Source of the DNA: Clostridia bacterium
GTDB taxonomy: Bacteria; Bacillota; Clostridia; TANB77; CAG-508
Direction of reading: 5' to 3'
DNA: 64,000 nt
Assembly: GCA_017429505.1 (NCBI GenBank)
Contig: JAFROW010000008.1
Span: 161,549 to 225,548 of the forward strand
Positions 44,907 through 46,886 of the stretch are shown here, piece by piece. Under the pieces are notes generated by a model. The model saw nothing but the letters and a program-made list of their open reading frames with translations, made no database searches and was not told the origin of the DNA. Within the stretch, counting starts at the first letter, position 1, and the number at the start of each line of letters is the position of its first letter. The translations under genes were made by a program, and so were the position numbers.

Positions 44907-46886
44907 TTATTGCTCAGTAGCTAATCTTTTTGTCAATTTTTTTCCGCCTCTAGCTTCTCTTTTTTTCTCATTTTTATATTCTGTAGGATTAAAGACATTT
45001 GCTTTTCCCCAATGTTCTTCAACAAATTTATCAAATTCTACTGCATCACTTTCATCCATGTTAAGTCTCATTTCTTTTATGTTTCCAGGAGTAATGCTAT
45101 TTGTAATTACATATTCTCCATCTATGTATTCTAATATATTTCTATATTCAAATAATTTTGCATCAGTTATTTTTCTAAAATACTCTGTGGCATTATCGAA
45201 GAAATAATCAAATTTTCCTTCTAAGGTTTTTTCTTTCCTATAATTATCAGTATATTCATCTACTCTTTTTACAGGAATACATTCTGTAACTCTTTCTATA
45301 TATCTCTTTCCTCTAAAATCTCTTGCTAAGTGAATATCAAAATTTAAAACTTGTACAACTTGTTCTTCTGCTGTTCTTTCATTTCTAAATACACCTGCTC
45401 TTAACATTGAGTTTCTAAGAGCTGTAACTAAATCCGGAAAAGTTTTTGCGTGGTGTGTAAATAATGTAAACTTAGATGCAACCTGAGCAGATTGTATCAT
45501 CCAAGATGCAACAGGGTCTGTTGCAACCTCTCCTATGATGTTTACCGCACCATCTGTTTTTTTCTGAACATCCAAACACTCTTGTCCAGCTATTGTATCA
45601 GTTTCACGCATTGATAAAATATTTCTTGTTGGGTAAACTTTTCTTAAGTGTAACTCAAATGCAGTTTCTGTAATACGTAAGTTCATTGTTTCGTATATAT
45701 TTTCTATCATACCCATAAGTAAAGTTGTTTTACCACAACCTTGCTCACCTGTGATTGAAGTAATCCTTGCACCCTTTACAAGGTATTTTAATAATTCAAT
45801 TGCTTCATCTTTTCCTGGTGTTTCTCCTGTCCATTGTTCAAGTGTAGCTCTTTTTACATCGAATTTTCTTACAAAGAATGCCCAAGTTTCAGACATACTT
45901 GGTCTAACAACAACTACACGAGAACCATCTTTCATTTCATTAATTTTGTAACCATTTGTGTCTGATAATTGTCCTGGATTGTTATATTTATATATATTTT
46001 GACATACTCTTTTAAGTTCTGCTTCTGTTCCAAAAGATAAAAACGCTAATCTTATAGATTTACCTTGGAAAAATATCCAAATACTATCACATGCTCTTTG
46101 GACTTTATGTTCTTGAACTTGAGTTAAATAGTCTCCTCCATCTGTTTGTGCAACTTGACTTAAAAAGCTTTCAGGTAAACCTGATACACCACCAGATACA
46201 CCATCTATGTTCATATCTCTTACTTCATCTATACTACTATATCCTTTATATTTTTGATATATTCTTTGTACAACTATACTTAGTTTATCTGCAAAAGAAA
46301 GAACTATATTTTCTTTATCATATATTTCTTCTATTTCTTCATCTGTAATAACATAGCAAGGTTTTGTCTCTCCTTCTAAATACTTTAATGTAGCTAAATC
46401 ATATTTTTTTATAATCTCTGTTAATGCTTCATATCCATACTCTTTCTTATATACATACAAAATAATATCAAATTTATCTTGTGGTGTCAGAATTGATGGC
46501 ACGTCAAACGGAATAGCTTTAGAAACATTTATTTCATTTACTCCATATTCTTTAGATAATAAATCATATATAAGTTCTTTTACATATTTTTTATCATTAA
46601 CATCTCCATATGTACATCCTTTTAATGCTTTCTTTAATTCGTATTTTTTATTTTTTCTTCTTATCAACTCTTCTTCTGAAAGTCCTATATCATATAAGTT
46701 TATTTTTGTGATTTCATCTAATCTTCTTTTTATATATTCTATCATTTTGTCAAGAGTATATGTTTGATCATCTACATCAATTTCTTGTACCACTTCAGCT
46801 TTTTGTTTCATATTTATATATTGTCTTATTATTATTACTGCTATTGTAATTATGATAAATATTAATAAAATATTGGTTACTGACAT
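44907..46886 (-). CDS. CpaF/TadA-like secretion ATPase (VirB11/GspE superfamily) with a ~300-aa N-terminal extension and an N-terminal TM anchor
   Basis: Walker A ITGEQGCGKTTLLMGM, an Asp box DGAVNIIGE and a His box FTLFTHHAKTF. N-terminal TM MSVTNILLIFIIITIAVIIIRQY. Confidence 0.7.
   Translation of the reverse strand: MSVTNILLIFIIITIAVIIIRQYINMKQKAEVVQEIDVDDQTYTLDKMIEYIKRRLDEITKINLYDIGLSEEELIRRKNKKYELKKALKGCTYGDVNDKKYVKELIYDLLSKEYGVNEINVSKAIPFDVPSILTPQDKFDIILYVYKKEYGYEALTEIIKKYDLATLKYLEGETKPCYVITDEEIEEIYDKENIVLSFADKLSIVVQRIYQKYKGYSSIDEVRDMNIDGVSGGVSGLPESFLSQVAQTDGGDYLTQVQEHKVQRACDSIWIFFQGKSIRLAFLSFGTEAELKRVCQNIYKYNNPGQLSDTNGYKINEMKDGSRVVVVRPSMSETWAFFVRKFDVKRATLEQWTGETPGKDEAIELLKYLVKGARITSITGEQGCGKTTLLMGMIENIYETMNLRITETAFELHLRKVYPTRNILSMRETDTIAGQECLDVQKKTDGAVNIIGEVATDPVASWMIQSAQVASKFTLFTHHAKTFPDLVTALRNSMLRAGVFRNERTAEEQVVQVLNFDIHLARDFRGKRYIERVTECIPVKRVDEYTDNYRKEKTLEGKFDYFFDNATEYFRKITDAKLFEYRNILEYIDGEYVITNSITPGNIKEMRLNMDESDAVEFDKFVEEHWGKANVFNPTEYKNEKKREARGGKKLTKRLATEQ

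Follow-up and report, generated by a model that had tools for sequence, protein, structure and literature searches.

Introduction

Can the ATPase that powers a type IV filament machine carry its own membrane anchor, and what would such an anchor do? A 64,000-nucleotide stretch of DNA from a Clostridia bacterium (assembly GCA_017429505.1, contig JAFROW010000008.1, positions 161,549 to 225,548 of the forward strand; hereafter the window) raises this question with a gene for a secretion ATPase of 659 amino acids (aa) that starts with a hydrophobic helix. The PilB, PilT, GspE, TadA and FlaI motors are regarded as soluble hexamers which attach to a platform in the membrane, and both the recruitment of the motor and the way in which one motor drives extension as well as retraction are open questions in the field.

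A first-pass annotation had described the gene as a TadA/CpaF-type ATPase with a membrane anchor and a long N-terminal extension. Following up this description, we consider it likely that the protein is a catalytically competent hexameric motor of a distinct Bacillota family, tethered to the membrane and powering a divergent Tad-like filament machine. The coordinates of the features are collected in Table 1.

Sequence and structure comparisons

The single ATPase sequence scored 18.2 bits against Pfam T2SSE (PF00437), under the cut-off of 24.9, and 42 of 61 diverse family members matched the same model at E <1e-3, the best at 4.5e-14. The best NCBIfam match was TIGR03819, ‘TadA family conjugal transfer-associated ATPase’ (residues 265-533; E 8e-11; 41.7 bits, with a cut-off of 373). 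In the PDB, the best match of the single sequence was CpaF (E 4e-9). A family profile built from the 61 diverse members also placed CpaF first (1.4e-25), followed by FlaI (9e-13), archaeal GspE (7e-12), VirB11 (3e-11) and PilT (8e-10). Foldseek comparison of the AlphaFold2 (AF2) model with the PDB showed CpaF at 1e-15, FlaI and archaeal GspE both at 4e-14, HP0525 at 3e-12, and PilB, PilT and GspE at ~1e-9. The assignment to the TadA/CpaF type was thus borne out by both sequence and fold.

The Walker A motif GEQGCGKTTLL and the His box FTHHAKTF, which the first-pass annotation had picked out, were confirmed in the translation at residues 380-390 and 476-483. The catalytic residues comprised Walker A G380-T388 with K386, the Asp box E407/E411, the Walker B glutamate E453 and the His box H479. 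G385, K386, E411 and E453 were invariant in both family alignments, and H479 was invariant in one and conserved at >=90% in the other. As judged from these comparisons, the protein is a PilT/VirB11-type ATPase that is predicted to be catalytically competent, and its nearest characterised relative is TadA/CpaF.

N-terminal anchor

A single hydrophobic segment was found in the ATPase, at residues 2-22, where the Kyte-Doolittle mean over 19 residues reached 2.9; all other windows of the protein were at or below 1.4. The AF2 model showed a helix at residues 3-29, and residues 30-39 had a predicted local distance difference test score (pLDDT) <50. An N-terminal hydrophobic helix was present in 94 of 111 full-length representatives (<=50% identity), and in the family alignments the hydrophobicity of the anchor was kept while its sequence drifted. 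The anchor that had been predicted from the window sequence is therefore upheld by this diverse set of relatives. Twelve of the 17 representatives without the helix formed a single neighbour-joining clade.

Across the 94 relatives with a helix, 3 residues on average stood ahead of it. The mean number of Lys and Arg residues was 0.17 ahead of the helix, compared with 2.7 in the 12 aa after it. From this charge asymmetry and the positive-inside rule we infer an N-out/C-in topology with the ATPase in the cytoplasm. Between the anchor helix and the soluble part, which opens with a conserved helix, the tether measured 14-29 aa in the same relatives, with a median of 19.

Two explanations would remove the anchor altogether. 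The helix could be an annotation artefact, with the true start further downstream and a conventional soluble ATPase as the product. Some database entries of the family do begin past the helix, for example that of A. pseudofirmus pBpOF4-01 (annotated as 583 aa), and the helix is missing in 17 of the 111 representatives. However, the Shine-Dalgarno sequence stands at the annotated ATG, a comparable one was absent at all nine other in-frame ATG, GTG or TTG codons within the first 350 codons, and the stop codon of the upstream gene lies just 26 nt before the ATG. A conventional shorter protein from an alternative downstream start, the case that the first-pass annotation had named against its own reading, is therefore not supported. 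The helix and the next 240 residues also kept their length and register in relatives down to ~30% identity, and the pBpOF4-01 ATPase gains the helix once its open reading frame (ORF) is extended upstream, the in-frame extension adding MNTTLNFILIAIVILCGIILFAL. We regard a start artefact as very improbable. A cleavable Sec signal peptide, with the protein or its N-domain working outside the cell, would agree with an N-terminal hydrophobic stretch of ~20 residues, but the positive region expected ahead of the helix is lacking, the basic residues are concentrated after the helix in the manner of an N-out/C-in anchor, and a small-residue cleavage motif was not seen in the sequence. The complete ATP-hydrolysis site moreover requires cytoplasmic ATP, and we give this explanation hardly any weight. 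Both were excluded to our satisfaction.

The extension in Alkalihalophilus pseudofirmus pBpOF4-01 lies at 3712-3843 of the fetched locus and encodes a transmembrane (TM) helix, MNTTLNFILIAIVILCGIILFALKLKGR, that is missing from the RefSeq entry. The RefSeq start of this protein appears to be a miscall.

Family and distribution

A word-indexed search returned >7,400 homologues, and the best 120 were all ~655-668 aa long and aligned from residue 1. An exhaustive search of representatives at 50% identity gave 369 clusters with E <1e-30, most of them 600-650 aa long and aligned from about residue 5, and at least 577 loci came from a scan in which each GTDB species was represented by one genome. 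The closest among the matches listed came from uncultured gut Clostridia (Clostridium sp. CAG:780, CAG:389, Candidatus Merdicola and Candidatus Scatovivens). Named members included Acetivibrio, Thermoclostridium stercorarium, Anaerobacterium, Alkaliphilus, Abyssisolibacter, Peptococcaceae and Tumebacillus, a bacillus, and the family was also found on megaplasmids of Lysinibacillus (pBsph), Paenibacillus, Alkalihalophilus, Butyrivibrio and Clostridium. The members were annotated as ‘pilus assembly protein CpaF’, ‘TadA’ or ‘ATPase, T2SS/T4P/T4SS family’.

Identity in the core fell abruptly, from >=40% inside the family to 24-28% against canonical CpaF, and we regard the family as discrete because of this drop. 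Judged by the alignments, members of a large Bacillota family that is already annotated as CpaF/TadA normally carry the anchor. The first-pass annotation had called a membrane-tethered assembly ATPase unusual. This is true beside four canonical CpaF proteins, which showed no hydrophobic segment (maximum Kyte-Doolittle 19-residue mean 1.39), but not within the Bacillota family. One family member, P0271, was 1069 aa long, ~400 aa longer than the rest of the family, with many extra P-loop and NACHT-type Pfam matches, which suggests a fusion or duplication variant of the motor.

Within our incomplete coverage of the literature, no TadA, CpaF or PilB-type motor was described as having a transmembrane anchor. 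According to excerpts of the respective papers, divergent Clostridial tad-like loci without recognisable prepilins have been placed in ‘no Flp’ groups (Imam et al. 2011, PMC3244431), and ‘Tad pilus genes’ adjoin T7SSg/T7SSh in Acetivibrio and Paenibacillus (PMC11217815). These excerpts of PMC3244431 and PMC11217815 make no mention of an anchor on TadA. Acetivibrio and Paenibacillus both carry members of the family described here, and the correspondence with the loci in the excerpts of PMC11217815 is a match at the level of the genus.

Domain organisation

Residues 273-539 aligned with residues 175-442 of the 501 residues of CpaF, leaving ~100 aa at the N-terminus and ~60 aa at the C-terminus as the extension of the ATPase relative to CpaF. 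The N-terminal extension of ~300 aa proposed at first is therefore long and without known match, as stated, but it exceeds CpaF by ~100 aa and not by 280-300 aa. The single ~280-aa domain of unknown function splits into parts, of which residues 45-161 are indeed without a solved structural neighbour. Domain and sequence searches showed no match of the long N-terminal region in Pfam, NCBIfam or the PDB, and residues 26-265 had no sequence or fold similarity to any GspE N1 or GspL structure.

The family alignments showed G233 of the Gly-rich motif IDGVSGGVSG to be invariant and G236 to be nearly invariant. In CpaF, N-terminal domain 1 (NTD1) is a three-helix motif followed by a hinge at G147/G149 (PMC11300603). 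By its position and form, the element at residues 162-237 is probably the counterpart of CpaF NTD1 and hinge 1. The insert that follows it (residues 238-268) had the lowest conservation and occupancy within the whole protein. In NTD2, the beta-rich domain ahead of the catalytic core, R323 and R340 were invariant or nearly so. The C-terminal subdomain was present family-wide, with a median length of 90 aa past the core.

Table 1. Features of the ATPase gene and of its operon, as positions in the window
Feature	Coordinates	Strand	Description and basis
Shine-Dalgarno sequence	46893..46899	-	AAGGAAG; 6-nt spacer to ATG
Whole ORF	44907..46886	-	659 aa, ATG start; membrane-anchored TadA/CpaF-like ATPase
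N-terminal TM anchor, residues 1-25	46812..46886	-	Predicted N-out/C-in; hydropathy, AF2, family conservation
Tether, residues 26-44	46755..46811	-	Short, charged, poorly conserved; AF2 pLDDT, family lengths
Family-specific helical domain, residues 45-161	46404..46754	-	Conserved; without solved structural neighbour
Small alpha/beta element, residues 162-237	46176..46403	-	Three helices, then Gly-rich IDGVSGGVSG; AF2 secondary structure
Variable insert, residues 238-268	46083..46175	-	Low confidence; pLDDT 55-68
NTD2, residues 269-345	45852..46082	-	Beta-rich N2 domain; aligns with CpaF from residue 175/176
RecA-like catalytic domain, residues 346-540	45267..45851	-	Motifs aligned to CpaF
Family-specific C-terminal subdomain, residues 541-627	45006..45266	-	Helix, beta-hairpin, two helices; pLDDT 82-91
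K/R-rich tail, residues 628-659	44910..45005	-	Lineage-specific; occupancy 0.24-0.27 in family alignments
Polytopic protein	42753..44819	-	688 aa, ~8 TM segments; probable fused TadB-TadC-like platform; TM scan, hhalign of halves
ParA/MinD-like protein	46913..47758	-	281 aa, TadZ position; weak matches, conserved position in related loci
Second small P-loop-like protein	47804..48499	-	231 aa; faint matches; ~225-240-aa gene conserved there
CpaB/RcpC-like protein	48521..49633	-	370 aa, N-terminal TM and SAF domain; weak matches, orthologue annotation
Pilin-like array	39033..42724	-	Six proteins (270, 140, 146/129, 142, 128 and 179 aa) and a 145-aa ORF
Conserved distal operon members	36589..38974	-	171 aa and 588 aa, N-terminal TM segments; translations

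Probable platform protein and operon

The polytopic 688-aa protein is encoded directly downstream of the ATPase, and such a protein took this position in at least 70 of 82 related loci. It had no match in Pfam (15 members scanned) or in the PDB (phmmer and profile searches). Its full-length profile gave no hhalign signal against single TadB or TadC sequences, and neither BLASTP nor hhalign of half-profiles showed an internal repeat between the halves. An alignment of 13 family members, including plasmid copies, was split into halves and compared with a set of eight aligned TadB/TadC-type proteins, of which six carried a T2SSF annotation and two were unannotated proteins encoded downstream of the ATPase gene of C. 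botulinum pCBG. For each half the match extended over nearly the full T2SSF length, with scores of 36-37, E 3e-4 and hhalign probabilities of 40-42%. The decoy scores for the two halves were at most 19 and 25 with 20 block-shuffled alignments, and 13 and 26 with the reversed alignment. We conclude with moderate confidence that the 688-aa protein is probably a fused TadB-TadC platform.

The same gene order was found in the window, in at least 70 of the 82 fetched loci, in T. stercorarium, in Tumebacillus and on plasmids (Clostridia, Bacilli, megaplasmids). It runs from a SAF/CpaB-like protein with an N-terminal TM segment through a ~230-aa protein, a ~275-aa ParA/MinD-like protein and the ATPase to the polytopic protein of ~680 aa. 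It continues with several proteins of 125-270 aa that carry an N-terminal hydrophobic helix, a conserved protein of ~175-185 aa and a larger protein with an N-terminal TM segment. By analogy, this order is a mirror of that of monoderm tad loci.

Pfam and NCBIfam scans covered the ATPase and eight neighbours and gave sub-threshold matches only. The 370-aa protein matched TIGR03177 pilus_cpaB (E 9e-5) and SAF (6e-3), and its orthologues are annotated as SAF domain-containing. The 281-aa protein matched AAA_31 (E 1e-3) and MinD (E 0.035). The P-loops of the proteins at the TadZ position are degenerate (NGKDQTGNTT in the 281-aa protein and GATDKTD in the 231-aa protein), and the 281-aa protein seems to have lost the canonical lysine of its P-loop. 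By eye, the 171-aa protein resembles proteins of 183 aa and 186 aa in the T. stercorarium and Tumebacillus loci.

The first-pass annotation had suggested that the anchor compensates for missing docking partners. This suggestion is unsupported, because the operon encodes the 688-aa TadB/TadC-like protein, the CpaB/SAF-like protein and two ParA/MinD-like proteins.

The G+C content of the window was 26%, and housekeeping genes for SpoVT, FtsY, FtsK, RNase J, SmpB, GlmM and NFACT lie in the neighbourhood, both in keeping with the uncultured gut Clostridia among the closest listed matches of the ATPase. Just downstream of the operon, at 34025-36439 on the minus strand, a Lys/Glu-rich protein of 804 aa is encoded, whose only match was a sub-threshold one to an intein splicing domain (E 9e-5; 22.7 bits with a cut-off of 35.8). 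Immediately upstream of the operon of T. stercorarium (6132-7544 of the locus) lies a gene for a Ser/Thr protein kinase with a C-terminal extension of ~200 aa that has no Pfam match, and this kinase might feed regulatory signals into the machine. Tumebacillus carries a WXG100 gene just upstream of its operon (6780-7058 of the fetched locus). An SLH-domain protein and a DUF5704 protein of ~1,040 aa follow the operon both in Tumebacillus (17252-21793) and on pBsph (15566-19939). The WXG100, SLH-domain and DUF5704 proteins could be surface cargo or form an anchoring module with a link to the system.

Candidate filament subunits

The six proteins of the array downstream of the platform gene start with MEN[AS]..[AK]L followed by a hydrophobic helix, and a seventh ORF of 145 aa has a different N-terminus. 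A similar N-terminal motif was found in T. stercorarium (MENSLKAII; 13905-14369 of the locus) and in Tumebacillus (MSNAQKALV; motif-bearing proteins at 13996-14511 and 15502-16023 of the locus). In the N-termini of the small proteins, K-A directly precedes the helix, and both the E at +5 and the Y at +6 of the Flp motif G/xxxxEY are lacking. We take this short leader, in which K occupies -2 and A occupies -1, to resemble the archaeal class III (PibD/FlaK-type) signal more than that of Flp or type IVa prepilins. The 146-aa ORF at 40501-40941 on the minus strand starts 17 codons upstream of an internal MENASKAL. Because all paralogues begin at MEN, its true start is probably at 40890.

Discussion

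In the mechanism that we propose, the single N-terminal helix would insert in the cytoplasmic membrane with a tail of ~3 residues outside and the remainder of the protein in the cytoplasm. A tether of ~19 residues would join the helix to the helical domain, which would be followed by the NTD1-like element, NTD2, the RecA-like domain and the C-terminal subdomain. With six such short tethers, the motor would never leave the membrane, and its N-face would rest against the neighbouring platform, the fused TadB/TadC-like protein. The built-in tether may replace the recruitment of a soluble ATPase from the cytoplasm, and it may also fix the motor in the orientation of filament extension.

The ring of CpaF has its NTD1s projecting from the top; NTD2 and the central loops are the predicted contact sites of the platform proteins CpaG and CpaH (PMC11300603). 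A 2026 preprint proposes that the N-face of the hexamer engages the platform for extension and that the hexamer inverts to present its C-face for retraction, and it reports that retraction needs R387 and an unobstructed C-terminus, with a C-terminal mCherry fusion abolishing retraction (10.64898/2026.02.24.707734). The residues S385-P386-R387 of CpaF aligned with T482-F483-P484 of the ATPase in the window, at positions that are unconserved in the family (consensus FTHHAKTxxDLV). A motor limited to extension would be consistent with the ~19-residue tethers, the unconserved equivalent of R387 and the extra ~90-aa subdomain on the C-face.

Other functions of the ATPase and of its anchor have to be weighed against this mechanism. 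The ATPase might energise a conjugation-type or protein-secretion apparatus, or DNA transfer, and not a pilus. The best NCBIfam model is the conjugal transfer-associated TadA, followed by weak TrbB matches (E ~1e-3), the operon occurs on megaplasmids in five genera (Lysinibacillus, Paenibacillus, Butyrivibrio, Alkalihalophilus and Clostridium), and a WXG100 gene adjoins it in Tumebacillus; Tad genes beside T7SSg/T7SSh are reported in the excerpts of PMC11217815. The candidate filament subunits, too, match no pilin family, and no prepilin peptidase is encoded within the window. However, TIGR03819 reached just 42 bits of the 373 of its cut-off, the copy in the window stands amid chromosomal housekeeping genes, and no relaxase, VirB4 or VirD4 was found among the genes scanned. 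Against a conjugation role of the pXO16/pBsph type, the transfer of pBsph has been attributed to a separate type IV secretion system, in an account that does not mention the ATPase operon (PMC13239906). The content of the operon, with its CpaB/SAF-like, ParA-like and double T2SSF-like proteins and many small proteins with an N-terminal helix, is that of a monoderm tad-like locus, and the family profile placed CpaF ahead of VirB11 by 14 orders of magnitude. We consider a transfer or secretion function unlikely. It also seems quite unlikely that the anchor stands in for an absent platform or recruitment protein, although no GspL, PilM or PilN-like tether was detected, both ParA-like proteins are degenerate and the 688-aa membrane protein is unrecognised by Pfam T2SSF. 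Canonical Tad systems are likewise without GspL and PilM, yet their CpaF is soluble; the double T2SSF-like platform, the CpaB-like protein and the proteins at the TadZ position are all present and syntenic; and within the clade that has no TM helix, C. argentinense at least retains this kind of locus.

We therefore prefer a membrane-tethered motor of a Tad-like filament machine, and several observations weigh against this preference. The helix is absent from a coherent clade of 12 representatives and from C. argentinense pRSJ17_1, and the existence of the helix-less clade implies that the anchor is dispensable for core function in some lineages. The full AF2 model had a mean pLDDT of just 76.8 and a predicted template modelling score of 0.50, and the assignment of the platform depends on the hhalign probabilities given above, which are only 40-42%. 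Membrane insertion, topology, the hexamer and platform contact are predictions throughout, as are orientation locking and pilus assembly as the output, and the locked orientation depends on a preprint model built largely from AlphaFold3 predictions. None of the small operon proteins matched Flp or another pilin family in Pfam or NCBIfam, and no polytopic ORF with the G.GD/G.HD motifs of an A24 prepilin peptidase (TadV) was found in the 64-kb window; such a peptidase, if there is one, must be encoded elsewhere in the genome. Filament assembly is unproven on account of these two negative results.

If CpaF reverses filament movement by flipping, the anchored family would be a natural control that cannot flip, and thus a natural test of whether retraction needs free reorientation of the motor. 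More tentatively, and with considerable doubt on our side, the loci might be more than diverged tad operons and represent a separate Bacillota-wide class of type IV filament machine. Such a machine would combine a covalently tethered one-way motor, locked with its N-face on the platform, with a platform of two fused T2SSF units, a pair of degenerate ParA-like proteins and, in place of Flp pilins, subunits with a very short archaeal-type leader. The operon is abundant in gut and soil Bacillota yet almost invisible to Pfam. Its carriers span hundreds of species, among them common gut Clostridia and the cellulolytic Acetivibrio and Thermoclostridium, and it is found on plasmids of Paenibacillus and Lysinibacillus. 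We rate the significance of the finding as moderate, given that genome annotation had already guessed the general role of the protein.

Relation to known motors

The closest known system is CpaF of Caulobacter crescentus (PDB 8rkd, 8rjf, 9e24), which alone powers the Tad (type IVc) pilus. It shares with the ATPase of the window NTD2 and the RecA-like core with all four ATPase motifs, probably also a three-helix N-domain followed by a Gly hinge, and the same slot in the operon, with TadZ-like genes on one side and TadB/C-like genes on the other. CpaF is soluble and starts with a disordered NTD0 of 79 aa (PMC11300603), whereas in the ATPase described here this place is taken by a TM helix that a short tether joins to a folded, helical domain of ~120 aa. 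It also differs from CpaF in its additional C-terminal subdomain of ~90 aa, in a core identity of 24-28% with scores below the Pfam T2SSE and TIGR03819 cut-offs, and in having no family-wide equivalent of R387 on the retraction face.

The second-best structural and profile matches were the archaeal FlaI and GspE-like ATPases (PDB 4ihq, 4ii7, 2oap). An origin of Tad systems from archaeal Epd pili has been proposed (PMC6668835). A helical N-terminal domain precedes the core in these archaeal proteins as well, but they are soluble and have no TM helix, and their profile E-values were 13 orders weaker than that of CpaF.

The GspE-GspL and PilB-PilM/N pairs of type II secretion systems and type IVa pili offer a likeness of another kind, since there, too, a single-pass membrane element keeps the N-terminal side of the motor on the inner side of the membrane. 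Their tether is a bitopic protein in its own right, which binds non-covalently to the N1 domain of the ATPase. In contrast, the predicted anchor of the ATPase described here lies within the motor polypeptide itself.

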